A stretch of 64,000 bases of DNA from Amphiscolops sp. MND2022 (taxonomy: Eukaryota). The stretch is from positions 62,126,001 through 62,190,000 of the forward strand of contig OZ076409.1 in NCBI GenBank assembly GCA_964187785.1, given 5' to 3'. Shown in pieces: positions 9,001-30,892 of the stretch. The notes under the pieces are model-generated. The model searched no databases and had not been told where the DNA came from. It worked only from the letters and a program-made list of their open reading frames with translations. The position numbers and the translations under genes are program-made. How positions within the stretch are numbered: the stretch's first letter is position 1; every line of letters begins with the position of its first letter.

Positions 9001-10295
9001 TAATAGAGTCCTATATGAGCAATGGCTTTCAAAATCGTATGGCTGGGATGTGAGAAATATAGCCAATGTTGACCCAAAAATATCTTGAAAACAACCATTC
9101 TGGAAATTTTTCGATTTGCTCAAATCTGTCCATACGATTCGTTTGCACTTTTCTACAGTCTTCCTACACCGTATTTGAGTCGTATATGTGCAAAAGCTTC
9201 AGACTCGTATGGTTGGGATGAGAGAACATAGCCAAAGTTAACCCAAAAATGGCCAAAAAACAGTCATTTTTCGACTTTTTTCCAGATTTCTCAAAAACTG
9301 TCCAAACGATTCGAACGAGGCTTTCTACAGTCATTTTACACCATAATAGAGTCATTCATGCGCAATTGCATCAAGTTTGTAAGGCTGAGATGTGAGAAAA
9401 ACAACCGAAATTGACCCAAAAAATGCTAAAAACAGCCATTTTTCGTTTTTTTTTGATTTTCTCAAAAACTGTCCACACGATTCGAACGGAATTCCATACA
9501 GTCATTCCACACCATATGAGAGTTCCGTATGCGCAAAAATGTCTTAAAAACAACCATTCTGGAAATTTTTTAACTTTCTTAAATCTGTCCATACGATTCG
9601 TACAACCTTTCTACAGTCTTTCTACACCGTATTAGAGTCGTATATGTGCAAAAGCATCAGACTCGTATGGTTGGGATGCGAGAACATAGCCAAAGTTAAC
9701 CCAAAAATGGCCAAAAAACAGTCATTTTTTGACTTTTTCCCTGTTTTCCCGAAAACTGTCCACACGATTTGAACGAAATTTTCTACTCTCATTTTAAACC
9801 ATAATAGAGTCCTCTATGCGCAGTTGCATCAAAATGGTACTGCTGGGATCTGAGAAACATAGCCGAAATGGACCCGAAAAAGGCTAAAAATGGCCATTTC
9901 CGGACAGTTTTCGATTTTCTCAAAACTGTCCATACGATTCGTACGAACTTTACTACAGTCATTATACACCATATAAGATTCCTTTACTTGCAAACGCATC
10001 GGAATTGTGTGGCTGGCATGCGAGGAACATAGCCATAATCAACCCAAAATGGCCAAAGAACAGCCATTTTTCGACCTTTTTCGATTTTCTCAAAAACTGT
10101 CCACACGATTCGTACGAACTTTTCTACAGTCATACTACACCGTATTAGAGTCCTATATGTGCAAAAGCATCAAAATCTTATGGCTGAAATGCGAGAAACA
10201 TAGCCAAAATCAACCAAAAAATGGCCAAAAAACAGTCAATTTTCAACTTTTTTTCGAGTTTCTCAAAAAGTGTCCAAACGATACGAACGAAATTT
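1..10295. repeat. Tandem satellite array, ~171-bp monomer (about 60 copies), runs off the window start
   Basis: Motif TTCTCAAAAACTGTCCACACGATTCGAACG...ATGCGCAATGG(A/C)ATCAAAATCGTATGGCTGGGATGCGAGAAACATAGCC recurs at ~141, 313, 482, 656, 826 and onward (169-174 bp spacing). Confidence 0.97.
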
Positions 10296-12243
10296 CATTA
10301 CAGTGCATCGAAGCTAAATCGCCACAGACACTGTTCAGTGCGTGTATGTCCTCAGATTCCGCAGACATATCTTAAAGCGTGTAAAATTGGCAATTTAGCA
10401 CTGATGTTGCGGGATCCACGCCACGAAAGTCGGCGTTTTTCGACATCCGAAGGGCATGGGTTTATACGTAAGACGGTTTCATATTGCGGAAACTGGGACC
10501 AAAATTATGCCGACAAATGCCGACAAGATGGCGCCAAATTCGTGGCTGGGATTCCACAAAGTGTATTATAACCAATCAGAGGGCTGTAAATTTTAAATTT
10601 CAGCGTCTTAGTTTCCACTTATGTTTTGATTAGCCGAAATCAAATTTAATAAGACAGAGTGTAAATACAAAGTCAATTACCACAAACAAGTTACAATCAA
10701 TGTCTCCCTTTCCGTAAAACTGTCGGCTTCTCTTCCTTTCATCTTTATATTGGTGATAAATTTATTTCAAGACTCTACTATACTATGGTACTACAATTAT
10801 ACCAACTGCATTTGAATTTGAAAAAAAACGAAAGTTGAAAATGAGTTTGAAAAAAAATGAGAAAGAAAAATTTCTTTCAATACTTCACTATACTCTGGTG
10901 GAACATACTATGACAATGAAACTTTGATTGAAAAAGTCAACTAGAATGCACTTGAAACCATTCAGGCTACTTATACTATACTATATTATACTATAATATA
11001 CACTATACTTTCAGTATTGTAGAAAATATTTATACTGATTGTATAAAATGATATACAATAGTGAAATACATTCATACCAATTGGAATAAATTGTTTTAAA
11101 AAAGAAAAATTGATTTCAAAAATTAGAATGGAAATCGGGAGACTTTGGTTCCAATCGTGGGTCAAATCGTGAAGCTTTTTAGATCAATAAAAGTGAATAT
11201 TTCATTGAAATAGTCAGTTAGAATGCAAATGAAAAGATTGAGGTTACTTGTACTATTCTTACCTATAATATACACCGTACTATATACAATAGTGAAATAC
11301 TACCTTTATACTGGAAAGATTTTTTCTTTAAAAATGAAGGATTTGTTATAATAATTACAGTGGAAATGGGGAGATTTTGGTTCCAATCGTGGGTCCAATC
11401 GTGAAGCATTTTAGCGACCAGAAAGTTTTTGACCAATAACCCCCATCCCTCCTCCCCAATCACGAAAGCACAAACTCAAGGACAAACCTAATCGAAGTGA
11501 TTTCTTTTTGAATTTCCTCAAATAGTGACGGAAACTTATTGACTTAAATTGTTAGCATTACAGCTTATACCATTGTCTCTTTTTCTCTAGTTTTGATTTT
11601 ATTATATTGTTTCAAATATTTCATCGATTCACATGAGGAGGAATTGCAAAGATTTTGGTTCAATTCAATAATGGACCTTTTCTGTTAATTCAAGTAATTC
11701 AATACCCGCAGTAATTCAATGATATTCTGCGGCCACAATTTTTTGAACGGGCATCCCGAAAAGAATACTGACCCCAGTAAGGCTCTCACGGTTCCAGATT
11801 ATGTGCCCATTGCTGTTAACCCCTACACGAAAACCTACGAGGAAGTAATGACCATCAAAACCCGCAAAGATGGTTACCCATGTTAAAGGCAGGGGAAGAA
11901 CTGTCTTGCCGGCAAAAACGGTGGGTCCATCTTTGCACCCGAAACGCTGTCCTTTTGATGCTGCCAATACGGGAATATGCTCAACCCCCCTTTAACTAGA
12001 CTTTTCAGATTTAGAGAAATTTGTAGATTCAGATTTAGATTTTCATTATTATTGAAAAAATGACAAAAAAACTGCAACAAAATACTTTACAAACCCGTTT
12101 CATTCAAGAAGTTTAATGTGAAAATTAATTGAAAAATATACTCAAACGTTCAAAACATGCTTTGAAACATTTAAACATTTGGACGTCTAATGCAAATTTT
12201 TTCAAAGAAGAAAAATAGGAGAAAAATTAGGAGTAAACCTCCT

Positions 12244-13811
12244 CATTACGAGGCCAAAGTGGGAAAAACGTGAACTACAACGATTTCGTTGTTGTAATTT
12301 TTGAATTCTTGAACTAATGGTAATACATGCAAATTTCAAGAATCGAGAAAAACTAAGCGAAAGCAAGTGGGGATTTTTCTCGATTCTTGATTTAAATATA
12401 ATGCATAGCATGCAAGAATCGAGAAAAGTTTCAAGAATCGAGAAAAACAGCTTCTAGCTGTTTTTCTCGATTCTTGAAACTTTCTCGATTCTTCAATTTT
12501 ACGTTGATTCTTAAAATTTATATGAATTCTTGAAAATTGTATGTCAATTCTTCAAAACTTTTCATCAATTCTTGGTCTAATCTAATCACACTAAATGTTA
12601 TTGAGATTTGATTCTCAGTTTTAAAAAAAATTCATTCTCGCTTTTATATAAATATCATCCTTTTTCAAACCAATTTTATTTGAATTCTAAATTTTAAATC
12701 AAAAATTTGTTCAGGTTCGCGTGGTTGGACTTTCTACTGCTTTGGCCAATACCCGGGACTTGGCGGACTGGCTTGGGATCAAAACGCAAGGCCTTTTCAA
12801 CTTCAAGCCATCTGTTCGTTCCGTCCTTCTTGAAATACACATGGCAGGTTTTGCTGGCAGACATTACTGTCCACGAATGGCATCGATGAACAAACCTGCT
12901 TATCAACAAATCAGAACCCATTCCCCCAACAAACCAGTGCAACTGGTTTAGAAGTTTTTGAAAATTCATAGTGTGACTCGAAGAGATAATAACCGTTATT
13001 GTGACAATGTTATTGTCATGTTAATAATGTTATTGTGACAATAACATTATGATGGTCTTAGGCTAATTCTTTTTCGTTCCATGTGGCCAAAATCGATGAA
13101 ATTTGAAAATTCAAAGAGTGACTCGAATTCAAGTTAATTTTGCTTTTGTTGCTCATGGATTAGAAATTTTTAATAATTCATTGAAAGACTCGATGTCAAT
13201 TCAATTTTGCTCTTGTTACTCACGGTTTTTGACAAGTAGTTTTTGACAAGTAACGAAGTAAAAAGCTAACATGAATCTCCTCCTGGTTGAGAAAAAACCT
13301 TTGCTTCAACGAAATAAAAATATTCATTCAAAAATCTATTAAAGTAACCCGAGCAATCATTGTAAACCTTTATTAGAATTTTAACAATGATTCTTCCGTT
13401 GAAATAATCATCACCTGATCAATAAAATTTACTATTATGACATTTGAATAAGAATTCGGGAAAACTTTCTAAGAATTCAGACACTTTGCAAGAATCGATA
13501 AAATTTTCAAGAATCAACAAAATTTTCAAGAATCGACAAAATTTCGAGAATCGACAAACTAATGTTAATACATCATCTCCATGTATTAACACTAGTGTCT
13601 AGATTCTCCAATGATTTTTTCTCGATTCTTGAATTTGGTGGAAATACATGCGCACTATTGTTTTCTCAATTCTTGACTTTTATAGGCGGCATAAACAATT
13701 CCTTTGAAGTTCAATTTTCAAGAATCGAGAAAAAGTTCACTTCGCTGCGTTAAATTACCACTTTTCTCGATTCTTGAAAATTTGAACATTTCCCACTTTG
13801 GCCTCGTAATG
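12244..13811. mobile_element. Non-autonomous CATTAC-family TIR element (1568 bp) nested in element 1
   Basis: Perfect 23-bp TIR CATTACGAGGCCAAAGTGGGAAA; 2-bp TSD CT (12242-43, 13812-13); many subterminal CAAGAATCGAGAAAA motifs in both orientations. Confidence 0.95.
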
Positions 13812-13839
13812 CTCAAGTGAAGTTCTGCAAGCTAAAACC

Positions 13840-14256
13840 GCAATGGAAACCAGGACATTTATTGTAACGCGCAATCATGTGTCTACCCCTTTGAGTGAAA
13901 GTCCTCAATGTATTAGGATTTGTGTATGGTTTCCACGCCATGTGTTTAAAGATATGGTCTTGTTTTCCGCATTGCATTCGTTGAGTAAGTCAGTTTATGC
14001 TCAAAACGGTTGAAACTAGGACGTTTGTGGTAACGCGCAATCATGTGTATGCATACCCCTTTCAGTGAAAGTTCACAATGTATTAAGATATGTGTTTGAT
14101 TTCCACGCCATATGTTTGAGGGAAATATACATGCTTCGCACTTTTCCGCATTTGCTTCTTGCGGCTTGGGAGATTTTTCCAAAACACGTGGAAACCAGGA
14201 CAAACGAAAGTTCGCCGAAACGGAGCCTAATATTGTGTGCTTTTTGGTACCAATCA
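13840..14256. repeat. Internal ~167-170-bp tandem repeat cluster 1 of element 1
   Basis: Repeated TAACGCGCAATCATGTGT...TTCCACGCCAT(G/A)TGTTT...TTTTCCGCATT; ends in TTTTGGTACCAATC. Confidence 0.85.
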
Positions 14257-14399
14257 ATGACATGTAAAACATTTCCTCAGTTCGTAGGAGCATCACAATT
14301 ACCCTAATAACAAAAGTTGAGAATTTATTGAATAGTTTCAAGTTCGGGTAACATATGAATTAGAAGAGAACAGTGAATCAAAACGACAGATGTCTAAAA

Positions 14400-17340
14400 G
14401 TGCCATCACGACAATCGCAGATACACCTTTGGATCCGGGCTGAAGTATGTATGGCTCCGGGTCAATCAGCATTTTTTTCTCGTCAACTTCAGCTACAAAA
14501 TCGATGTTCAAAAATTAGAAACCCCCAGCTGCAAATAGTTTCGCTATTTTGGAATATTGTGATGGTTCAATTCCAAACTCCCGTGTTGCTGATGACTCTC
14601 TTTTCTTTGGTTTCTTCATATCGTTTATTTCCTCTGTGGAACATAAGATTAAGTCTTTTTCGTCCTTCAGAACAAAACAATTGGGGAGCTGTGAATGGGT
14701 GCTCATCAACACGTCAGCTTGTTCATTCTCTAGAAAAGTCCCTCCCAAATTGATAATCAAGTTTTTCACCATGTCATGTGTTAGAATATGTTTGTTCCAG
14801 GAACCCAAGCGACCAAGCAGTGAAAATCTTAACCCACTTAAAGAATTTTCTTGACATCCAATGGCGATAGCTGTCAATGGTGGTTCTTTGCGGCAAATAT
14901 CAAGATACTCAGGTCCTGGGACGTCAATGTCCTTCACTTTTGTTGCACTATGAAAAATACTCATTACGCTGTTCGAGTTTTTTTTTCGAAACTGTCTGAT
15001 AGTTCTTTTTGTTTCTAGTCACATTATGACTACTACTATCATCAAAGTAGACCTCTGTTGGTGCGTTTTGTTCAGGTTCCATGATGTTCCTATAAGTTGG
15101 TTCCGCGTCCAACCCTTTGTCTTCAACTTCAACTGCGACTCTTAAGAATTTCAAGAAAGAAAAGGACGACTTGAGGAATAGTGGATCCTTGTGATAGATT
15201 TTGCCTCCTCCGCGCCTTGTTTTTGTCTGGAATCCACGATTAGCTTGGTGGTTGGATTTTTCAAGGCCTTCGCACGAATGATCAAATGGTCTTTGTATAT
15301 ATACACTCTCAACAAGTTGAGGAAACATCAGCATTTTCAATTTATAAGGTGTCAAACCGGCACACCCGAATATCAAGATTTCAATTTGGTAATAGGCTTC
15401 AGCCCATTTTTTGAATGTTTCATTGTTGAATTCTTCTGCTCACAGACATAAAACACTTTGGTTCAAACTCGATCGCAGGAGTTCGCAAGCACCAAAAGCA
15501 GATTTGATTTTGTCACTGGACACTTTTTGCTTGGAGTTATTTTTAATGAAAAGTTTAGTAAACCAGTTTCTTAGGATATTAACGCAAGGGACATCTGCGC
15601 TTTCTTCACTACCAACAATGATAAGAGACCCCAAACACCATCGTAAAGATCGCTAATTTTACAGTCTTTTGCACGTGCAAGCTCCTCTTTATCGGCAATG
15701 ACCGCTTGAGCACTCCTACCTGCGAGGGATACTGCACCTACAGTACCGATACCTGAACCACTTCTATGAGATATGTTGAACTGAAAGTATGGTTTCTTTG
15801 CATCTTTTCTAGTCAAGTTTTCTTCAAGCTGGCGAACTGCTACATCATGATTAGGAAACTTTTCTCTGATAATTTTCGATGCAATTCTCTGGAGGTCATT
15901 TTCAACATAACGGGTGGTCATTTGCGTGGTATCAGGACAAACTGATTGCTGATTGTTTATTTTCGTAGAAGATGAAGGAAGATTTTTGGGGGTCCGTTCT
16001 GAGGGGTATAATAACATCATTTTGGTAGACCAGTGTCATGATGACATTTTGTTGGTGTGTATTAAAGTTCCGTTATATATAGTGGCATTTTCGATGGGCT
16101 AGTTGACTCAACTGTGATTCCGAGCACTAATTTCATTAAAAACGGCGAATCGCCACTGTATGTCAAAATAACGCCTCGTTTTGATAGTTCCAGGGTCTTC
16201 TTAAAAAATCAACCAGACTCTGGAACTCCAGCTATAGTTGGTCCAAGGTTTTGCTCCAATGCGAATCTTCTATATTTATCCCTGTATGCAGCAAAACAGA
16301 ATACTGAATGTGATGATTGACACTTTACTTTGTCAGTAAGGATCCGGATTGCAATTTGTGTTGTTTCGACACCTTCAATTTCACAACCATCACCCCAAAT
16401 GTCAACTCGTAGGCCATTGAGTTCTTTCGTTCCAATTAGGAAGTATGACACCCTTCCACGCATTTGATAAGGTTGCAGCGAAAACCAGAGAAGTTTCTTA
16501 CTGGCTCACACATTGCGGTAAAGTAGGACTGAATCTCGGATGTTGACTTCTTGACCAATCAAATGCATGGGACTAAATAGTATCCGAGTCCAACAATTGA
16601 GAGTCTTGTTCGAATAACTTTTATAACATCTTCCATGTTACCCGTTTTCGTGACAATAGATAAATGGTGCCTGAACTCATCAGTAGATCCTCTTGTTTCG
16701 AAAAGATCTTCAATTTTTTGATTAGGTTTGGTTCCTTTTTTGTGAATCGTTGATCTTTTCTCTTATTTGCAGAGCTATTGATTTTTTCATGAAACTGTTG
16801 AACCCAACTTCTGACATCAGATTTGTTCTAATTAGATCAGTTTGTTCACGTTTGACTTTTTTTGGCGTCTGATTTTTCTAGCTCCCTTTCTTTTGAGAGA
16901 AAATTGTCACTGACTGGACCTTCAGGGCCACATCTTCAGGAGTCCCATCTGCAGGTGTCGCAAGGGTGTCTTTCATGTAAGGATTGTAATATGGTATGAC
17001 ATCATTAATGAAAAACAAACTGACAAACTCTCTTCTGGCTGAATTCTAAGGAAAGTCTTCAAATCCACGCAGTACAAGTAGTTTTGCCAATTTTGCTGCT
17101 ACAAATACAGGAGCTTTTTTTGGCCTTTAACAGCAATTCTCCGAATGAATTTTTTTGCATTTAATTTTGTGCTAGTCAACATTTCCCCAACAAGTGTCTC
17201 GAACATCCGAAACCTATTCGGTATTTCTTTCCCGGAAACATCGTCAAAAAATCTACAGTTTGTGATGAGTTTTTCATTTTCCACTTTGATAATATTTCTT
17301 TCCCAAATTGACAGGGGAGTCATTTCTAAAGCCGGTTTTT
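14400..17340 (-). pseudogene. Frameshifted RAG1/Transib/CMC-related DDE transposase with C-terminal BRCT-like domain
   Basis: Ordered motifs across broken frames: RVDIWGDGC (D1), LTYSGDSPFL (D2), VCPDTTQMTTR, LTPYKLKMLMFP...HSCEGLEKSN (E). Compare RAG1 KESCDG / GYDEK / DALH / TNYFHK / SEGNESGN. Followed by LSGLRFSLLG...DMVKNLIINLGG (BRCT-like). Boundaries approximate. Confidence 0.72.
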
Positions 17341-17724
17341 AGGTTTACTGCAAAGTGAAATTGTATTGATTGTAGAAAATTTTTCAGACTGACAACCATT
17401 ACACACAATAAAATGAAATGCAATTAGATACACAAAACCACAAGTGAAAATGAGTCCGATTTTGAGTCTCTCCATTAAATTGATGAAGAACGGTTCAAAT
17501 AATTTATTAAACTTGAGTCCATATCACCCAAGGCCATTTTGTCAATAATCACAATCAGATGCAAAAGAGTCCTTCATTATGTCTTCTCACATATAATTAG
17601 AAGGTTTCACCTCTTAGGACTGTTTGTTTTGTCTTTGTAAAGTGTTATCTGATTGAAAACACTCAAAAGGTAGTAAAGAAAAGGAAAAACAAAAACTGTT
17701 TGATTGTTTTTCAAAAACCTTGAC

Positions 17725-18220
17725 TACACCCCTTCGAATGAAATTGAGCAACGTAATAGGATATGTGTTCGGTTTACACGCCTTGTCTTCAAAGTTATGT
17801 CTTTGTTTTCCGCATTGTTTTCTTTGAGCTAGTTATTATTTACTTAAATACCTTGAAAACCAGAACATTTATGGTAACGCGCAATCCGGTGTCTGCATAC
17901 ATACCCCTTCGAGTGAAAGTTCGAGTGAAAGAATGTGTTAAGATTTTGCTTTGAAATCCACGCCATATGTTTGAAAATATGGTCTTGTTTTCCGCATTAG
18001 GTTCTTTGAGCATTATACTGAAAATCCGTGGAAACCGAGACGAATAGAATTGAGCAATGCGTTACGACTTGTGTTTGGATTTCATGCCATGTTTTTTAAG
18101 ATGTGTCCTTGTTTTCCGCATAGCTTTTCGGAGCACTTCATTTATGCTGAAAAACGTTGGAAAACGCGACATGTAAAAATCCCGGAAAAAGCTGAGATGG
18201 TGTCATTTTTGGTACCAATC
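17725..18220. repeat. Internal ~167-170-bp tandem repeat cluster 2 of element 1
   Basis: Same unit as 13840-14256; starts ACACCCCTT, ends TTTTGGTACCAATC. Confidence 0.85.
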
Positions 18221-18447
18221 AGGGGATGACTTATAAAAGACAAGTGCCTTGTTGATCATACGCTTTCAGAATAAAGTAATTCGATAGTCTAAGAATTTCC
18301 TCAAGAATTTTCACGAATGCAAGATCATGGAAGTCATATTGTAATACTTACTAATATTGATGAAAGATGAACTGTTGAACAAACAAAAAATGATCAAACA
18401 CGAATACAAAAAGTTTTTTAAAATTTAAAAGATTGTAAGAGAGTATT

Positions 18448-19850
18448 TCATGCGTCTGAGACAGGTACATTTCGACTCAGATCTCTATATGGGCTGTTTT
18501 TGTAGTGGCCTTGGCTCGTCAAAAACTGAACACGAATCGTGAACATGCCAATTTCTCGCTGATCAAAGAAACTCATTGTCTTTAAAAGAACATCTTCTCC
18601 ATCGCTTGCGTGACATGGGATCAAATCCCAATTTCTTCCAAGTACAGTATCCCATGTACCGTTGCACCATTTATGTCCCTCTTGGTTTGCAACACTATAC
18701 TTGGCAGCCTCTTTGAAATTGCAAGTTTCAAAGCTACAGAGCTTTTTTGTCAAAGAGGTACAGGGAACTAATGTTGCGGTTAAGGAATGCTTCTTTCTTG
18801 AGAGTCCCATCATTCGTTTCATTGCGGAAAACAAAGCATAAGCTTGGTCCATGTTTTCCAGAAGCAAATTAAAATCCATAACATCGCCTTTAGAAGACGT
18901 TGTTGTGACAACCCGAATTGTTGGAAAAAGCACTTCAATGTGAGGATCACTTCTGCTCTACATGAATGCACATGCTTTTCTCTTCTGATAATCATAGTAA
19001 CCTTCTTGCGTTCAAAATCATCATTTGCGTAAAATACAATAAATCCAACCTGAAAATAAAATGATTGAACAAATATTAGGTGGGAAAAAGTCCTTGAAAA
19101 ATTTGGTGCCAAGGGTTATCAAAATTCAAAAGCAAAATTTGCAAACAAAAAAGCAAGAAAGAATACCTTTATGACATTATTTTCACAAGGCGCATATGTT
19201 AATTCAACGTCATCGTCAACATTTGGAGGCAAGGAAAGAAGGTCGACTTGTGGCATCGGTTAGGTGGCGCTTGTCACACGGGCTTGCTTCTTGACGAATG
19301 GGCGATGTACGTCAGATCCTGAATCTTGATCTTGTTCAGTTTCATCATTTTTTGGTTCAGTGTCTCTTACACAAGGTTTATTTCTTAGTTGGCGATACGA
19401 AACATACCCCTCATTGTATTGTCCTCCACGTCGGTTATCAAACATTGTTGACAGGAAGCGTCAATAATTTTTACCCTACCTATCACAACTGACTCACAGC
19501 AATGGTCCTCCCGGCATCTTTCGCTATCTACACAATTACAATCTGGCTGCCAAAAGTAAATTTGATCGTTTCTGACCAGTCGACGAGCGTTGTAGCTAAG
19601 TGGTGTTGACCGTCCATTGTTGCTCACAGTTTCTTCGCGGACAAGATTGTGGGATTTTCTAATTTTCCAGTGATTTTTGTCAGGTCTGTATACTTCGGGA
19701 ACAGTGATATATTCTTTTCTATTGTAACACCAATCGAACCATTTAATTCTTACACACCAATCGCTCACAAAAGAAATAATTTTCGCTGATTCTCAAATTG
19801 ATGTCGCAGGATCCAAGATTTACACAACTTCATTTTCATAGAGAGATTGT
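18448..19850 (-). pseudogene. Element-borne gene: N-terminal Tudor/chromo-barrel-like region plus C-terminal WD-x-x-LG-x-x-WD domain of unknown function
   Basis: Translation LYENEVV*ILDPATSI*ESAKIISFVSDWCVRIKWFDW; probable intron ~19050-19170; C-terminal LVPCTS...WDTVLGRNWD. Homologue at 46969-48835. Confidence 0.55.
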
Positions 19851-20184
19851 AGAAGCATTTATATTTTAAAGCTCGAAACTAATAGAATGTGTAGACCCCT
19901 TATGTGGTGACTGTTGATGGGATGAGCGTTAAAGAAGACGATAACGAGATTGGTTGCAACCCAAATTAATTACAACTAGTCGTCACTTTTTTACCAAGCA
20001 TGTGCACTAATAAAAGTAGTTGCAAATTGGAGACTATAGCATCATTCCGAAGTAACGCTTTTCACATGCCTCATTTAGGATTGAGGTTTTCAGTTGCACA
20101 GCCGGATATGGCACTACAAATTACCATTTACCAGATATTATCGTATTCCGTATCAACAAATATTCGCAATCTACAATCATTATC

Positions 20185-22827
20185 TTGAAATTGTCTCTGA
20201 AAATCAGACAGTCAAAACTGAATTTCAAACTCTCTGAAATGGAACAAAACAAACCCTTTGCTGCATTTGTTGATGCCCCCAATTCCAACACCATCTTCCG
20301 CGGACATGTCACGTTAACCCAAATGCAAACTCCTTCTAGTTTGTTTACGCCCCTGGTATCGCCCGAGATGTTTAGCCAAACACCGGGCGGGCCACTCAAC
20401 AGCACTCCGCTCTGTCTCAAAGATCCACCTGAATTCAGCTTCAATGATGCGATGATGGAATAATAACCGAACATCTCCCGACTGAATCTGAAGAGGTCAT
20501 TAACGAGTTTTTGAAAATTCAGAGCGAATCATCAGCTGAGATTATAATTCCTCTAAAACCGTCGAATGGACATGCAAGCTCGGATAATGTAGCAAGCAAA
20601 CGTCCTATGCCCCCACCAGTTGATATGGTAAATATACTAAAACTTCTGAATAGATACGTTTTAAACTTTGCGTTTCGATGAGGGGCACGTTCCCTGGAAA
20701 CCAATTAACTTTTTAATTCCTGGAGGATGCGTTATCAGTTTCAAATACATTTTGAAAATTTTTGAAAACTCTCCATTTTTTAAATTGTTCCCGCCAAGAA
20801 GAAGAAGCCTGATAATAAAACGGATACAGTGGAGTCCTTCATCAAATGGACAATAACAGAGAATGTATCACGTTGTAGTAAGAGCATTCTGGCTACGAAA
20901 AAGGTTCAAATGGAGTTCAGTTCTTTCTTTCTAATTTTCTTGGGTTTTCGGGATCAGGAGGTCAGCAATGTCACTGTCCACGCCGTGAAATGAAAGAATC
21001 CGACGACAAAAATGCCTCTTTCAGGCTTGAGATAGATGTAGCGGAGTGATGCGCCCAAAAAACGTGCTACAATATCCCACGATGGTTATCGGGAGGCTTT
21101 GTGGACTACTTTGTGAGTGTTCGAAGCGCGTTTCTGGAGCACAGTGAGGGAACTCCTTTCGAAAGACTGCTGAGTGACCCAGACGATCGGATCCTGTACA
21201 CCGAATTGTTTTTTTGTGAACTCCGTTGGGAAACCCAACCAAAAACTTCCAACCTAGCCACGTTGTTGACCAATATATGGAGTCGGTATGTATTAACAAA
21301 TCATAATCACACCCCTTTGAAAAAAACAAGCAATGAGTTAGGATTTGGATTCGATTTCCACGCCATGTGTTCAAAGATATGGTCTTCTTTTCCGCATTGC
21401 GTTCTTTGAGTGAGTCAATTCGAACTGAAAACCGTGGAAACTAGGGCATTCGTGTTAACGCGCAATGGTGTGAAAACCCCTTTGAGTTAATGTTCGCATT
21501 GTATTAGGATTTGTATTTAATTTGAACGCCATGTGTTTAGAGATATGATCTTGTTTTCTGCGTCGCATTCTTTGAGCAAGTCAAATTATACTGAAAATTC
21601 GTGGAAACCGGGACAGTTTATAATGTAGAGCTAGTTTTGGTACCAGTCGAGGGTCGATCTATCTGTGACACGTACACTGTTGATATAATTAATTCAGAAT
21701 GCATATAGACACTATTGTGAAACCCTTTCAATCAAAAAACGACGGTATTTTCATCGAATGCAAAAACCCAAACAAAACAAAGCTAAATTCAATGTTTGTA
21801 TGAATTTAAACAGGTACTGAAACACTGTGATAGCCCGCTGTGAGAATTGGAAAGGCACCTTCATATTGTGTTGCCCATTGCAAGCGACACTGAAGCAGCG
21901 CTCCCTAAGTTGAAAGTCCAAACAAAAGCAATTTGGGAGACTCTGGACATTGCCTTGGACTACCAGGTCGTGGAGTTGGTGGTGAGAAGGCACCAGGATC
22001 GACAGAGATATGCCCGCCAATCAGCTCGTGCCAAGCCTTTTTTAAGCATATGAATGGGAAAACTAACGTTGCTTCGTTGGAAATGAGACTGAAGAGCTAT
22101 TTTCAGCGACAGAAGTGGACGACGCAGGATGAAGGCAACCAAGACCTGAGAAAAGTTTATGTACTTGTGCTGCCAGTGCTTATTACACCAAAAGTAGAAA
22201 CGAACATAGCAATTCAGAAGATTTATTAAAAGGATTGGCAAGCAATATGGAGTTTGAAGATCAAACTTTGCTTATGAAGAGATGTCGATATCAAAAATGG
22301 CCCGGAGTCACGCAGGTTTTTTTAGCAAGTTTTGACGAGGAATCGTTGCCACCCGAGTTTTCCAGAAAAATGAAGTCGTCCTTGATTACCACGGGCAGGT
22401 TTTTCACCCAAACATCAATGGACGAAGTATCCGCCATTGAGGTGTTAAACGGGAGTTTTGTCTTGAAGTCAAAGGACCTGACCGAAGGATAATCAATGCC
22501 TATGCGGAAACGTGTCCTGTCCACCCTGATAGTAGATGTATGGGCAGCCTTGCCAATCACTCAGTTTTGGAAGCCAATATGGAGTCCACTGATGTCGTTG
22601 TGTTTGCCGACAACAATCAACGTTAAGTTGTCCTCCGAGCAAGTAAAACAATTCATCTCTTCGAGCAATTAATTTTCTACTACGAAGATCCGGTAGCCCG
22701 CTCTGAATTCAGTGAGTCAAAGTCAGGCAGCAGCTCAGAAAACACCAGCAGCCTCTTCAGCGGTAGTCAAGAACCAAGAAAAGAAAACAGTAACAACCTT
22801 GCAGAAAATTTAGACAAAGAAAATTGA
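20185..22827 (+). pseudogene. Element-borne gene: tentative tyrosine-recombinase-like region fused to a C-terminal SET domain; disrupted
   Basis: SET: QKWPGV...INAYAETCPVHPDSRCMGSLANHS..EAN...VVLRASKTIHLFEQLIFYYED (22280-22700; frameshift and stop). Recombinase-like: LGFRDQEVSNVT and DYFVSVRSAFL...LFF (20940-21290). Intron ~21286-21813. SET is solid; the recombinase call is weak. Confidence 0.65.
21308..21650. repeat. Internal ~167-bp tandem repeat cluster 3 of element 1 (intronic)
   Basis: ACTGAAAA(C/TT)CGTGGAAAC at ~21423 and ~21590; ends TTTTGGTACCAGTC. Confidence 0.85.
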
Positions 22828-23396
22828 CGTTGAAAGGGAATCACAAACTTTTAGACATTTGTGGCATTGGTTCATTGGTTTTAGTGTACGTGATTGTTTA
22901 AAATGTTGTTACTTAGTTTGCACTGAAACTATTTTGAGATTAAAATGCTGACGAAAGCTTGAACCTAATTTTAAACCATTTCAAAGTAGTTTTTGTAACG
23001 TTTGCACCGCAATGCAAGAATTAGGTTTGATTTGAAGAATTCATTTACTTTGTTATCATAAGTCAAAATTTGAATGGAACAAATTTTCCAATAAAATTCA
23101 CACCCAAAATTACATCGGAAGCCCCTTGATAATTTGAGGTGAAAGAAAACGTACTTCAAAGTTTTACAAAACGTCACAAGTTCAATTGTAAGTCCAAAAA
23201 ATAGGTTGCTCGAATATTTTTATTCAAATAGATTCAAGTATAGAAAACTTTTTTTCCGACAGTGGGTCGTGTTGTGATGTTTCAATTCGTTACTAACGAT
23301 GATGTACTTATTAAAAAGTCGTTTCTTGTCATATCAATAATCACACATTGCTAATTCTTATCGGAGATTTTCAAAAGTTTATATATGTGTCTAATT

Positions 23397-23645
23397 CAAC
23401 GGCGGCATAATGGAGATGGTGGCGCAGTTGATAATTCCCGGTTGTCAGGAGTGAAGCTTGATACGTTGTCTACCACCGGTTCGATTTCGCCTATAAACTT
23501 CAAGGTGATTTGATGCAGACTACTCTGTATTCCCTCCATTTTGATTGAGCAAAAGACGATTGTGTTTCTCTTCACAATGATCGAAAGAGCCCACATGAAA
23601 TGATCACTGCGCCACTGCATCTCTTTTGATGTCCTTTTTTCCAAT
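23397..23645 (+). repeat. tRNA-like/Pol III-box module, copy 1
   Basis: GATGGTGGCGCAGTTG (A-box-like) ... GGTTCGATTTC (B-box-like); paralogous to 24121-24350. Confidence 0.55.
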
Positions 23646-24120
23646 TGGTTGTGATATCCGGTCTCATCCGTTCTTGTAATATAAACTGAAAGTTTTTTGA
23701 TCGCCTCATAGGCTTATCATCAAAAAGGTTTCCCTTCGTCTTTCGACCACAAATGTCATTTTCTGAAAACACATAGAAATTACATGCGACTTACAATCGA
23801 TTTATCTTGCCTCAATAACAATGAAAAGTAGTACATGGTAATCTGTTCGTTTTTCCGTACATTTCTTACGTTCATTGAATACTATCTTCTCATTGGTCAC
23901 GACAAATGAAAACGTAATTACGAGAGTTACGGTAATGTGACAGAACAATATTCCAACGATGTATTAAGTAATTGAAACACCGAGATTCGACCCACGATTG
24001 GAAACAAAAGTTTTTCAAAAGCATTCTCTATATTCCATTTATTGCTATTTTTCATCGAAGATGACAGCCAAGTGGTTCAAAACCAAGTTCAACAATCAAA
24101 AATTTTTATTTGTGTCCAAA

Positions 24121-24350
24121 GCAACGGCATAATGGGGATGGTGGCGCAGCTGATAATTCCCGTGGGTATGTAGTGAAGCTTGATACCTTGTCACCACCGG
24201 TTCGATCCCCGCCAACACGCTATTGGGAGACTCGATGCAGACTGCTCTGTATTCCCTCCACTGTATTGATTCGGCAAAAGGTGTCAATCCACTTCACAAT
24301 AATGGAAGAATCACTGCGCCACTGCATCTCTTGTGATGTCTTTTTTTTAT
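24121..24350 (+). repeat. tRNA-like/Pol III-box module, copy 2
   Basis: GGGGATGGTGGCGCAGCTG ... CCGGTTCGATCCCCGCCA; second A-box-like TGGCGCAGTGA on the minus strand at ~24311-24322. Confidence 0.6.
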
Positions 24351-25423
24351 TGGTAGTTCATTCTGTCTGAGAAGACTCCCTCTATCAAATCAAACTCAAC
24401 TATAACTGCAACTGAAACTCATCACTGATAGGAGTGGGTATTTGAAAATTCCGCGCTTAATGTGTTACTGTGGGGGGGGATGTTGAATTAACGGAAAAGA
24501 TCCCAGCATACCTTTAGCTGACTTGATTAACAGCTAAAATTTTCTTGAAGAAAAAACTCGAAATTAAGGACTCTCACTTTCAACTAGAATTTCACAGTCA
24601 TCAATTTCGGTGTGACCCAAATCGTACACTTCAGTTGTAATATATTTACCATTGGTCAGCTTTACAATTTATTTACAATTACAAGATTTGATGTTTCTGT
24701 ACATAAATGGGACACCAATTGAAACAATTGAAAGACATTACTGAAACATTTAATAACTAAAAATTTTAAACTGAAATAACTGATAATTTTAAATGAATCA
24801 TGAAATTTGACCTTTCGAAGAACGCAAATTCATTTCAACGTAGTAAAAACCTTACTTCCGAGAGGGTATGTTATAGGTACAGGTTCAACTGTATTCTTTA
24901 GACTCTCAAATGTAAATATTTTACTATAGTGGAATGCTACATTTCTACCAACTGTATGAATTTGAAAAAAATGAAAATTTTATTGAAGTAATTAGTGTGG
25001 AATTGAAGTTATATTTTGGTTCCAATCGTGGGTCAAATCGTGATTAACCGAGCATTATCTTTTCTAGCTATTTTCATCTGATTCCAAGAGATAAAATGCG
25101 GAAACAGAATATACGTGTTGCGGAATGTAGGTGAACGAATTACTCTACTGGATAAAAATGTGAAGTCTGAGACACATTTAGCACTAAGCACTATTTGCAC
25201 TCTACATAATTGGCGCTATTAGGGCCTGGCATAAGTGGCAATTAATTGGCCCCATTAACTTGCCAAGACACAAACTTGCGGAAAGTAAGATATCGACTTC
25301 AAAGGAAGCTAAGGCAGCCGACATCAAAAGGGAATGAATTCAGTGCACGCGTCTCGGTTTCCAAGATTTCGTGTCCTGATTTCCCCAAAACGCTCAGAAA
25401 AAGGATGCAGATGCACTCTATTG

Positions 25424-25666
25424 ATTCTACAGTCAATCTACACCATATAAGAATCCTTTAAAGGCAAGGGCATTGGAATCGTGTGGCTGGGATGCGAGGA
25501 ACGTAGCCATTACTAACCCAAAAATGGCCAAAGACGGCCATTTTTCGATTTTTTTTTTCGATTTTCTCAAAAACTGTCCACACGATTCGTACGAACTTTT
25601 TTTACAGGCATTCTACACCATATTAGAGTCATATATCGGCAAAGGCATCAGAATCGTATGGCTGGG
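25424..25666. repeat. 171-bp satellite, continuation after element 1
   Basis: Same monomer as 1-10295. Confidence 0.95.
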
Positions 25667-26920
25667 TGAGCGGGGGAATCCCCAAAAATTGTTCTGAGGG
25701 ATGGGTAGGGCCCCTATCCCGAGATCGAGGGCGGAGCTAAATAACAACCATATCCAAAACACGCACTTTTGAGGACGATCTCGAAAACTGTCCTTAAGAG
25801 TGTGCTGAAACTTTGCACACATGCAAAACTGAATATTCTAGGAACTTGTGCCCGCTGACGTTTTTTCGAAAAAAATCTCTAGTCATGCCGAAAAACCTTA
25901 TTTTTTCAACAAAAAACTACTTTTTCCAGTTTTTTCTCAATCATGACGTCATAACTTGTCTCAGACGGCTCGGAGCGATTCGGGCGTGGTCCACAATATT
26001 ATTCAACGGTTCGTGAGGAGTGTGTAGGGCAAGTTTGATGCCAATCGGATAGAAACGCAGTGAGTAATAGACAAATTTCCAAGAAGTTTTTCCGAAAAAA
26101 AGTTTTTTCTCTACCATTTTTGCCCATATTTTCAAAGATACAGTCACCTTGGGTAGTTTCTGCCCAACTTACTAGTCAACAAAACCATTTGGCCAATTTG
26201 CGGCAGTTTCAGCGTTCCAGCATTGCCCGGTGAAAAAATATGTGACTTCGAACATTCAAAAAATTATTTTTCGACTTCAATTTTTTTGTTCAACTTCAGG
26301 CCGCCCAAAGGTTAAAAACTTCCACACAACTTAGATTGCAAGTAGATGCATGCGGAAAGTACTCGGGTAGACGAGAAAAGTGGGCTTCAGAACAACTCTC
26401 TATCTTAACCTGACGTTGCCTTATGATGTTTTGAGTGTGCGATTGAGAAGTGTTGAAATTGTCAAAAAATGAAAATGGAAGACAAGTCTCATTGAAAACT
26501 TATCGATAGATGTTCAAGCAACCGCAGAGCTGTTCAATTGACGTAGTTTAGTGCACCAAGACTCATCAATTTTTTCGACTTATTTTAAAAAGTGTTGAAA
26601 TCTGTATTAAGTATCAGTTAACGAGAAATACACAAGTACATTGTGGGGGGAGATGAGAATGTACACTTCAAAAGCCAAAAGATGCTACCTTCTCAATTTC
26701 TTCAACCTTGTTAACTGTCATTCAGAAGACACAAAACCGTTTCCAGTAACTCCATGACTTTTAGCAGTAGGTTCTGTAAAAAAATTGCAGTGCTGATACT
26801 AAGTGATCCAAAGTTGAATACATATAGTAAACCATGGAAATACTTTAAGATCATCTGTCATCGTCATCAACTTTCCACAACCATCCACTAACCTATCCTG
26901 TGAGGACGTGGCATCCGTCT
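25667..26920. mobile_element. Unclassified ~1.25-kb non-coding insertion in the satellite
   Basis: Monomer breaks at ATGGCTGGG (25666) and resumes at TGGATGCGAGAAAC (26921); no clear TIR/TSD or ORF. Confidence 0.6.
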
Positions 26921-27666
26921 TGGATGCGAGAAACGTAGCCAAAGTTAACCCAAAAATGGCCAAAAAACAGTCATTTTTCGACGTTTTTAGTTTTCCTAAA
27001 AACTGTCCACACGATTCGAACGAAACTTTCTACAGTCATTTTACACCATAATAGAGTCTTATATGCGCAATTACATTAAAATCGTATTGCTGGGATGTGA
27101 GAAACATAGCTGAAATTGACCCAAAAAAGGTTAAAAACAGCCATTTTTGGACATTTTTCGATTTTCTCAAAACTGTCCATACGATTCCTACGGACTTTTC
27201 TACAGTCATTCTACACCAAATAAGAGTCCTTTAATTGCAAAAGCATCGGAATTGTGTGGCTGGGATGCGAGGAACATAGCCAAAGTTAACCCAAAAATGG
27301 AAAAAAACATTCATTTTTCGACTTTTTTCGATTTTCTCAAAACTGTCCATACGATACGTACGAACTTTTCCACAGTCATTCTACACCATATAAGAGTCCT
27401 TTAATTGCAAGGGCATCGGAATCGTGTGGCTGGGATGCGAGGAACATAGCCATAATTAACCCAAAAAAAGTCAAAAAACAGCCATTTTTCGATTTTTTTC
27501 GATTTTCTCAAAAACTGTCCACACGATTCGAACGAAATTTTCTACTGTTTTTCTAACCCTTATTAGAGTCCTATTTTTGCAATGGCATCAAAAATGTATG
27601 ATTGGTATATAAGAAATATAGTCAAAATTAGCCCAAAAATAGTCAAAAGTATGCCATTTTTTGGAC
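26921..27666. repeat. 171-bp satellite, terminal ~4 monomers
   Basis: Same monomer as 1-10295. Confidence 0.95.
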
Positions 27667-28220: not shown

Positions 28221-30892
28221 GTATTCGACGCTGCTCTGAATGACAAAAAGGATGTTCTGACGGGGATCTTGCAAGTTCTGGAAGTAGAGTTATTAGATGC
28301 AGAGAAGAACCAGATGGGAAAGACTCTGTTGGAGACAATAATGAGAAAGTGGTTGCCAGTCGGAGACACTGTGCTGCAGTTGATCACCTTCCACTTACCG
28401 TCTCCCGCTCAGGCTCAGAAGTACAGAATGGAAATGCTGTACGAAGGACCCCACGACGACCCTTGTGCCACGGCTATTAAGAACTGTGACCCAGAGGGCG
28501 AACTCATGATGTACATCTCCAAAATGGTGCCGAGCAACGACAGAGGTCGATTCTACGCTTTCGGTCGAGTCTTCTCAGGAAAAGTGTCTACCGGACTCAA
28601 GGCCAGAATAATGGGACCCAACTTCGTGCACGGCGGCAAGACAGATCTGTACTGCACATCCATCCAAAGGTAACCCATCTTCAGTTCAATACGCGAACTG
28701 TTAAAAGAATTGTCATTGATATACCTTTAGTGTTGTGTTTGACATCATCTATCCACTTCTGACGTCATGTTCCGTATAAATGTGGTGTTTCTCGGCATTT
28801 CGAACTCTTCACTCATCTATCAGGCGAGCGACGGTTTTCCCGTCTCCCTAACCTGCTTCAGGGCGAAACTTTAACCCAATTTTGAATGAAAGACCCCATT
28901 TTTACTGATGCTTTTCTTGCTTATGAAAATAACTCATGAATCTATCCTTTTAACTATATTTCAACACCAAGTTGAAAATCGCGGAGCTGGAATAAAAAGA
29001 TTGCCCAAAATTGTCATATTAAGTACATGAGCCGAGATGCGCTCTTAAACTACACTCGTCAAAATAAATGATTGTTTCAGATGCATTTCATATTTGTTCT
29101 GAATTCAGTTTGCAATTACAACCCTACTTTGGCTAATTTTTGATTTTTTTTCTCATTGAACTACATTTTTCACTGGGTTAAATCACTGTGAATTTGATCT
29201 ACAAATAACTGATTTGACTGAATAAATTGTTTACAGGACAATGCTGATGATGGGTTGTTATATGGAACCCATCGATGATGTTCCTTGTGGAAACATCTGT
29301 AGTTTGGTTGGAGTTGATCAGTACTTGGTGAAATCTGGTACGATCTCCACGTACGAGAAGGCTCATAACTTGAAAGTGATGAAGTTCAGTGTCAGTCCCG
29401 TCGTCCGAGTTGCCGTTGAATGTAAAAACCCGCAGGATCTACCCAAGCTTGTCGAAGGTACCACTTTGCTTTTTTGGCTACTTCAGCCTTATTATTGCGA
29501 ATGTGTCCATTGTAAGGTCTCATTTTGGAACTCACTTGCATTCGCCTATTTCGAGTTGCCTCACTTTGACCCTTCTTTTTTCAAGTACAAAATCACTGCA
29601 AATTTTATGATAAATTTTTCAATACGTCCTGATAAAAAGTAGAATTTACCTGATGCTTCCGTGTTGTCAGGCTTGAAGCGATTGGCCAAATCAGATCCTA
29701 TGGTGCTGTGTGAGACCACCGAGGGTGGAGACCACATTGTGTCAGGTGCCGGTGAATTGCACTTGGAGATCTGTTTGAAAGATTTGGAGGAGGACCACGC
29801 TTGCGTTCCCATCATCAAGAACGACCCCGTCGTGTCCTTCAGAGAAACTGTCATCTCAACAGGAAGAACCGCTGCTCTCAGCAAGTCTCCCAATAAGCAC
29901 AACCGATTGTTCGTTACCGCAGATCCTTTCCTGGAAGGACTCGCTGAAAAGATTGACCTTGGTGACGTTAAGGCCAGTGACGAAGCCAAGGCCAGAGCTC
30001 AATTTATATACGAGACTTTCGTGAAAGGAGACGATAATGAAGCTGAATTGGTAGGAGCACAATGGGGACCCGACGATCTTCAAAAGATCTGGGCTTTTGG
30101 ACCTGACACATCGGGACCCAACTTCCTAATCGATGGTACCAAGGGTGTACAATACTTGAACGAAATCAAAGACAGTTTCGTGTACGGTTTTCAATGGGCC
30201 ACCAAAGAGGTGAGAATTATTTGCTTGCATAGTGTTTCAAAAGTATGCCTAACGAAATTATAACGTAATGAACTTTAAACAGGGTGTTGTTGCTAATGAA
30301 AACTGTCGAGGAATTCGATGGAGAATCAAGGACGTCACGTTGCATACTGATGCAATTCACAGAGGTGGTGGACAGATCATTCCCACTGCTTTAAGGGTGT
30401 TGTACGCTTCACACTTGCAAGCCGATCCCAGAATGGTTGAGCCCATCTACCTTTGTGAAATCCAGTGTCCTAATGATATGTATAGCAGTGTCAACGGAGT
30501 ATTGAATAGAAGACGAGGGGCCATATTCGACCAGAGCAATTTGGCCACTTCTCAACTCAACTTGAAGTGTTATCTACCCGTTCTGGAATCATTTGGTTAG
30601 CTCGAATAAATGGTCACATTTAAATATCGTAAAGTGCTAGCCCTCATACAATTTTTTGTTTTGCTTTTCTCGGCGTACTTAATTTGCGAGTTTTGCAGGT
30701 TTCACGGCTGAGCTCAGATCAAATACTGGTGGTAAGGCTTTCCCTCAGTGTGTATTCGATCACTGGGACATTCTCAATGATGATCCTATGGAAATGAACT
30801 CGAAGACGAATGTGATCATCCTCGGCATCCGAAAAAGAAAGGGAATCAAGGAAGAAATCCCCAAACTGGACGACTACCTTGACAAGCTGTAA
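28221..30892 (+). CDS. EEF2: Eukaryotic translation elongation factor 2, 3' portion; exons 28221-28669, 29237-29457, 29671-30209, 30283-30595, 30699-30892
   Basis: Motifs [68 protein letters not shown], diphthamide loop [33 protein letters not shown] introns join in frame. The N-terminal ~295 aa are absent from the window. Confidence 0.97.

Follow-up and report, generated by a model that had tools for sequence, protein, structure and literature searches.

A SET8-like domain fused to a predicted tyrosine-recombinase remnant in the cargo of a multi-copy DDE transposon of Amphiscolops sp.

The genome of Amphiscolops sp. MND2022 contains multi-copy transposons carrying a gene in which a domain predicted to be the first half of the tyrosine-recombinase catalytic fold precedes a SET domain most like that of SET8/PR-Set7. 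We are highly confident that this fusion is real and that its recombinase part is catalytically dead. We slightly favour a further proposal, namely that the remnant is a DNA-binding tether for the SET8-like enzyme of the transposon, the two parts being joined by predicted in-frame splicing.

The gene came to attention in a decayed copy of the element, at positions 10296-25423 of a 64,000-nt stretch of DNA (assembly GCA_964187785.1, contig OZ076409.1, 62,126,001-62,190,000, forward strand), which is called the window throughout. An earlier note on this DNA had proposed either a second recombination chemistry or a dead DNA-binding domain that targets a PR-Set7-like methyltransferase to the element.

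The transposon, its cargo and its repeats

A DNA search of the 1.07-Gb genome returned 125 matching pieces (40 scored candidates of 412), and exon 2 of the fusion gene, searched as protein, gave 150 scored matches among 518 candidates; the resulting copy counts are lower bounds. Ten other copies align to the window between two sharply defined ends. In the youngest subfamily, the element is about 17.8 kb long and the copies are 99.8-99.9% identical. Each copy is bounded by inverted repeats of 21 bp that terminate in CA...TG, and 2-bp target duplications of varying sequence flank 11 of 11 copies with both ends (18 were examined; one has decayed ends). The left inverted repeat of the window copy (10296..10316, plus strand) starts with 5'-CA and is inserted at the end of a 171-bp satellite array, while the right one (25403..25423, minus strand) is decayed; this copy is flanked by TT and AT, with no matching duplication. 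The array, with 171-172-bp units and a higher-order structure, covers window positions 1-10300 and 25424-27600, the element sitting near its end. A spliced gene on the plus strand at 28221-30600 presumably encodes translation elongation factor 2.

The transposase is a long minus-strand frame, which is broken in the window (14422..17335, minus strand) and has there a C-terminal BRCT-like domain, a tail found in 8 of 38 members. Three acidic residues are conserved in its alignment (D in 21/22, D in 34/34, and E in 37/37 rows covering each column), and their motif context suggests that they form the catalytic triad. Taken together, the ends, the duplications, and the triad point to a DDE enzyme as the mover of the element, as the earlier note had supposed. 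The ends and the duplication fit the CMCT clade, which the accessible part of PMC12730594 describes as having 5'-CA...TG-3' ends and 2-5-bp duplications. The clade motifs C(2)C and H(3-4)H are not conserved in the transposase alignment, which instead shows D-x-x-H and T-P-Y-K motifs, and the transposon, CMCT-like in its ends and apparent triad, is left unclassified. A search of PDB sequences gave no match to any solved transposase, RAG1/Transib included. A Crypton identity was ruled out by the 21-bp inverted ends, the 2-bp duplications, and the DDE-type gene, since Cryptons, according to the accessible part of PMC3212892, have no terminal inverted repeats, have short direct repeats, and are moved by their recombinase. 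No loci related to the element were found in the viral and metagenome contigs searched.

Two further features stand out. The family C transposase (L091:7651-9999) has, near its N terminus, a stretch of coding sequence in which a 13-residue unit is repeated in tandem, and a copy on C5 (L024) has a second related inverted end 4.4 kb past its right end. The latter copy is flanked by two open frames (L024:4981-7097) which we take to resemble Polinton/Maverick genes.

All four families of the element (A to D) carry the fusion gene, a second gene head to head with it, a zinc-finger/JmjC region, and the transposase. The order varies, and within the DNA examined part of the set is missing from one of five family-D and one of four family-B copies. 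The zinc-finger and JmjC exons lie at L023:719-2682; the JmjC exons retain the H-x-D motif and a later His, and they match PHF8 (E 6.6e-12) and KDM7A (E 1.1e-10), as well as PHF2 and KDM2A, values that assign family likeness rather than substrate. The KDM2/7-type JmjC domain is found in all four families, together with a C2H2-like zinc-finger region (weak Pfam hits; tblastn). In mammals, PHF8 and SET8 act on the same mark. Of the left-hand cargo region, the window copy retains traces of one downstream exon (11731..12016, plus strand), and tblastn (queries znf, jm1, and jm2) found no match anywhere in the window to the zinc-finger/JmjC exons of intact copies. The head-to-head gene is broken in the window (18451..19939, minus strand), forms a 450-aa open frame in family B (L095:767-2116), and is under purifying selection between families. 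It has no match in Pfam or the Atlas and thus no assigned family; a chromo or Tudor identity, which was considered, is unsupported by both.

An internal repeat of about 166 bp is present ten times in a family A copy, eight times in B, and 14 times in C. The window has two copies at 13844..14165 (plus strand), with the conserved core of about 60 bp, three at 17723..18153 (plus strand), and two more within the fusion gene. The core motif is conserved across families A-C despite saturated silent sites, and B and C carry it on both strands. The repeat of family D is another one, of about 180 bp, with a weak likeness to the core motif (best E 0.004). A tight core pattern gave 741 exact genomic matches against none for the reversed control, a count over the whole genome rather than over the elements alone, with the first 100 places listed. 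The repeat was also considered as a folded RNA and rejected, as its folding energy was -31.6 kcal/mol against -33.7 +/- 3.6 kcal/mol in 100 base shuffles.

Structure of the fusion gene and constraint on its parts

In the window, the fusion gene lies on the plus strand. Exon 1 (20239..20627) is a low-complexity Pro/Ser/Thr region of 131 aa in open-frame copies, and exon 2 (20784..21285), with 174 aa in such copies, encodes the predicted first half of the recombinase catalytic domain. A predicted phase-0 intron (GT...AG; 21286..21813), which holds the two internal-repeat copies (dispersed repeat 21301-21600), separates it from exon 3 (21814..22827). This last exon spans 338 aa in open-frame copies and comprises a helical linker of about 150 aa, the SET8-like SET domain (about 22260-22705), and a Ser-rich tail. 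The predicted product is 131 + 174 + 338 = 643 aa, in line with the database proteins P0005 (642 aa) and P0030.

Families A, B, and C share the positions of the splice donor that follows exon 2 and of the acceptor that precedes exon 3, both in phase 0, and GT and AG are present in all 29 parsed copies of family A (30 examined). Family D of the same genome is intronless, with one 644-aa frame that is colinear across the exon junction. Therefore, the fusion is seen as DNA in family D and is predicted by splicing in families A-C, and the upstream region and the SET exon are predicted to form one coding unit, as the earlier note had assumed. An H-x-S...F look-alike in family C lies within the intron, judging from the conserved splice sites. 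Several relatives of 297-339 aa (the P0025, P0039, and P0043 cluster) start at the linker and have no remnant. These may represent incomplete genes, or some lineages may be able to do without the remnant.

While the window copy is dead, its family is not. Exon 1 of this copy has three frameshifts, exon 2 has three frameshifts and one stop, and exon 3 has about five frameshifts and three stops; the exon-2 acceptor is AA in place of AG, and the gene is 89-93% identical to an open-frame copy. By comparison, 29 of the 30 best exon-2 genomic matches (150 scored of 518 candidates) have no stop. The motifs from which the gene was recognised are all where the earlier note had read them, GFRDQEVSNVT at 20943, YFVSVRSAF at 21107, ELFF at 21203, CPVHP at 22513, ANHSVLEAN at 22552, and ASKTIHLFEQLIFYY at 22639, but spread over three reading frames (20943-22683), since the window copy is broken. 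The SET match in Pfam and the 150 scored exon-2 matches argue that their resemblance is not due to chance. Two details of that reading did not hold across copies. The Arg of GFRDQE is a private mutation of the window copy, being found in one of 57 rows, with Leu in 54 and Ile in two rows from a single copy, and IFYY is likewise private, FDY standing in 43 of the 45 rows that cover the site.

Exon 2 is conserved between copies, as a passenger sequence would not be. Its pN/pS is 0.16 and 0.20 in comparisons with close subfamilies, where the bootstrap reaches up to 0.59 and 0.74. For two copies of older subfamilies it is 0.44-0.46 with intervals that include 1, and against families B and C it is 0.23-0.35 with silent sites saturated. 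In the same between-family comparison, the SET domain gave 0.19-0.32, near the values of exon 2; exon 1 is under weak constraint. Overall, the remnant is under purifying selection, which answers the earlier note on the question of selection across copies. These values bear on the idea that the remnant is a structural relic, which would pack against the linker and help the SET enzyme to fold with no binding role of its own. In both models, the final helix of the remnant does extend unbroken into the linker, and shorter relatives that lack the remnant exist. However, constraint over all 174 residues is much like that on the SET domain, and the full model (pTM 0.42) has no sign of a fixed inter-domain packing, so that a mere relic appears improbable.

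The SET domain is recognised by Pfam in an open-frame copy (E 1.5e-10), and SETD8 ranks first by sequence, by Foldseek, and by VIA (Z 17.1, rmsd 3.0, 149 aligned), the structure searches having been made with a model of P0005. When the full-length model was used in fold searches, SET matches took up the listings, and the linker thus falls outside their reach. The G-x-G, Y-H-G, R-L-x-N-H, and D-Y motifs are retained, with Asn kept in 46/46, His in 44/46, and the catalytic Tyr in 45/45 rows covering each. Sequence and model therefore agree that the domain is most like SET8/PR-Set7, which bears out the earlier comparison with PR-Set7. It differs from SETD8/KMT5A/PR-Set7, its best match in sequence and structure, in the low identity of about 25%, a Cys/His insert, other flanks, and the residue at the Y334 position of SETD8, which is Phe in 44 of 45 rows and not the Tyr switch of SET8. 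Phe at this position would permit more than one methyl group. By overall likeness at about 25% identity, H4K20 would be the most likely substrate. Further multi-copy SET domains with the same lead-in occur outside families A-D (G000:C13:47864263, C12:31321284, C1:40180301, and similar).

The recombinase half and its origin

The upstream domain was modelled with AlphaFold on family D, which is 27-28% identical to exon 2 of the window family, from an alignment without the fish proteins described below (pLDDT 88.6). When the model was compared by VIA with 48,161 chains, rows 1-23 were all tyrosine recombinases, topoisomerase IB, or recombinase-derived proteins, with XerD at the top (Z 8.8, rmsd 3.4, 125 aligned; a Z of 8-9 is middling by VIA's own note). 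The matches include XerA, XerH, MrpR (Z 8.4), Cre, integrases, topoisomerase IB, QRICH1, and Ndc10, and the first unrelated row has a Z of 4.3. Foldseek ranked XerH first (E 0.27, prob 0.87), with nothing at E <= 0.001. Pfam, NCBIfam, and PHROGs gave no recombinase match for exon 2, the Atlas gave leads alone, and no exon-2 homologue was found among longer proteins. A profile of the remnant matched the fish recombinase regions with a probability of 72 (E 3.4e-5), and in a comparison with 30 column shuffles the probability was 54 against at most 0.37. The upstream domain is thus predicted to be the first half of a tyrosine-recombinase catalytic fold, and the recombinase likeness suspected in the earlier note reappears as a fold match of the family-D model.

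The closing H-x-x-R/H/Y motifs, not evident to the earlier note either, appear to have been lost with the other half. The structural matches run as far as Cre 281, XerH 303, and lambda Int 302, which is 6-8 residues short of the His of H-x-x-R in each (Cre H289, XerH H309, lambda Int H308; Table 3 of PMC10516654). About 20 further residues of the model form one continuous, unaligned helix. As the model is limited to 191 residues, its end alone is no proof of a deletion, a point carried by the alignments: no equivalents of H-x-x-R, H/W, or Tyr were found in either register against the fish relatives, the register and the exact limits of the deletion being uncertain. In the retained half, the first catalytic Arg site (ungapped) is the one occupied by Leu in 54 of 57 rows. 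An alternative Arg lies two positions further along; Lys takes its place in 13 rows and is the residue of family C, family D lacks the Arg, and the catalytic Lys is not conserved in the remnant rows. Of the catalytic residues R, K, H, R, H, and Y, whose pattern the earlier note had proposed to check, none is conserved in the remnant. A His...Tyr pair in the linker was considered as catalytic residues and rejected, as it aligns to the fish linker, downstream of the fish catalytic Tyr. The core-binding (SAM-like) domain is also absent, and the low-complexity exon 1 stands in its place (pLDDT <50).

Because the catalytic residues are missing, we infer that the fusion protein cannot recombine DNA. 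The second recombination chemistry of the earlier note, an active recombinase that circularises or resolves the element, draws on the recombinase fold and on full-length relatives that keep most active-site residues; it is set against a protein with no equivalent of H-x-x-R, H/W, or Y, Leu at the Arg site, and an unconserved Lys, in an element that bears the ends and duplications of a DDE mover, and we regard it as extremely improbable.

The full-length relatives include proteins of fish, such as CAL9688300.1, KAK9535941.1, and XP_072563150.1, in which a full recombinase is fused to SET. The fish set (P0084, P0128, P0131, P0098, P0154, and P0080) is annotated as hypothetical, SET-containing, or KMT5A-like. 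These proteins share with the transposon gene the SET subtype, the Q-x-W lead-in, and the Cys/His insert (profile prob 99.9), but they keep a core-binding-like region and the R, K, R, H, and Y residues. Long relatives from fish have the same domain order, the core-binding-like region, and R, K, x-x-x-R, H, and Y; under strict patterns, R, K, x-x-x-R, and H...Y are found in 4 of 18 fish and other long relatives, and the long relatives give weak matches to Phage_int_SAM. From the last strand of the remnant to the SET lead-in there are 195-201 aa in six truncated proteins; the same segment has 216-330 aa in 10 of 13 long relatives and 154-190 aa in the other three. A search of the PDB with the fish profile gave SET domains only among the 60 matches listed. 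When a full recombinase-SET protein was searched against the Amphiscolops genome, SET domains alone matched and no intact donor was found.

It is likely that the full recombinase-SET fusion kept in fish is the ancestral form, since active sites are lost more easily than gained. This argument, and no rooted tree, is the basis for the direction from full to truncated; a SET tree was mis-cut in 3 of 33 rows and was left unused. The fish fusions themselves possibly represent an undescribed element moved by its recombinase.

Proposed role and relation to known systems

In Cre and Xer, the hairpin and the recognition helix of this half touch DNA. Since both are predicted to be kept, DNA binding is proposed for the remnant; against it speaks the loss of the core-binding region, which supplies much of a recombinase's grip on DNA. 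A possible scheme is as follows. The gene would descend from a full recombinase-SET fusion like those of fish, and the core-binding region and the H-x-x-R/H/Y half may have been lost once a DDE transposase did the moving. The kept half would bind DNA, with the motif of about 60 bp, repeated 8-14 times per element, as its candidate address, and it would bring lysine methylation, most likely of H4K20, to the chromatin of the element itself. The enzyme would act alongside the KDM2/7-type JmjC protein of the element, so that the element might stay usable for transcription or transposition in the manner of the plant VANC proteins. All the data are compatible with the earlier suggestion of a dead domain that binds DNA and directs the methyltransferase to the element, binding and targeting being putative.

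The repeated motif is equally a candidate ligand of the zinc-finger protein or the transposase, and the remnant could instead be a protein-binding or nucleosome-docking module with no sequence preference, any targeting being left to the zinc-finger protein of the element, to which the remnant would bind in the way of the Crypton-derived QRICH1 in Zincore. Such docking would suit the loss of the core-binding region and the C2H2-like region encoded in all four families, and the fold matches include a structure of QRICH1/Zincore with a zinc-finger protein on DNA (9hjt, Z 4.8). However, the fold match spans the very helix that reads DNA in Cre/Xer, and we consider docking rather unlikely.

The direction of the effect may also be the reverse of that proposed, the tethered protein dampening the element in a form of self-limitation, or its substrate may be the transposase or host proteins and not histones. 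SET8 has known non-histone substrates and H4K20 methylation can be repressive, and the Phe in place of Y334 would allow more than one methyl group. The recent spread of a nearly identical young subfamily with open frames and the gene intact speaks against it, although direction of effect is not settled by that; overall, this account seems distinctly improbable, less so than an active recombinase but more so than a relic. Returning to the tether, a wider version of it is put forward tentatively, as possible but doubtful: an unclassified DDE lineage would have captured the recombinase-SET gene of a mobile element of another kind and kept the DNA-reading half of the recombinase as a sequence-specific address label. 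The label would take an H4K20 writer, along with a PHF8-like eraser, to the motif repeated in the element, and the whole would make up a self-contained chromatin editor.

Comparison with known systems draws here on the accessible parts of the cited papers. SET genes on DNA transposons are known from the HarbingerS and MuDR families of Phytophthora (PMC12730594), which are likewise DDE transposons carrying their own SET lysine methyltransferase gene. By contrast, the present element has another transposase type and other ends (CA...TG, 2-bp duplication), and its SET domain is SET8-like, is fused to a putative recombinase remnant, and travels with a JmjC gene; no such fusion is mentioned in the accessible text of PMC12730594. 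Dead recombinase folds kept as regulators are also known (PMC3212892, PMC10516654, PMC13465315). The Crypton-derived DUF3504 proteins (ZMYM2-4, QRICH1, KCTD1, and WOC) and Ndc10/Gcr1 have tyrosine-recombinase domains without catalytic residues that are kept under selection (PMC3212892); those are host genes, whereas here the owner is another transposon, and half of the domain seems deleted, not merely mutated, and is fused to SET. DUF3504 itself gave no Pfam match and one Atlas lead at 0.88. MrpR of prophage SPbeta is a mobile-element recombinase fold without recombinase activity, which binds a repeated motif in its own element (PMC10516654); unlike the present protein, it comes from bacteria, retains both domains, and acts by itself as a repressor, with no enzyme attached. 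With VANC of VANDAL transposons, the likeness is in the proposed logic of an element factor acting on its own repeated motifs (PMC5735166), and no homology is claimed; VANC causes loss of DNA methylation, whereas the cargo here carries histone-enzyme domains and its anti-silencing role is putative.

No published description of a recombinase-SET fusion or of this element was found in titles and abstract openings, a search with Repbase, most subscription journals, and supplements outside its scope, and the transposon families may already bear Repbase names.

How transposons evade silencing by chromatin is well understood in a few plant cases only. The young open-frame copies in Amphiscolops offer testable parts, namely a module predicted to bind DNA, a repeated motif as its candidate target, a SET8-like writer, and an eraser of the KDM2/7 type. 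In addition, attention is drawn to a group of uncharacterised fish proteins with a full recombinase-SET fusion, and the transposon gene would be a case of one mobile element re-using the recombinase of another.
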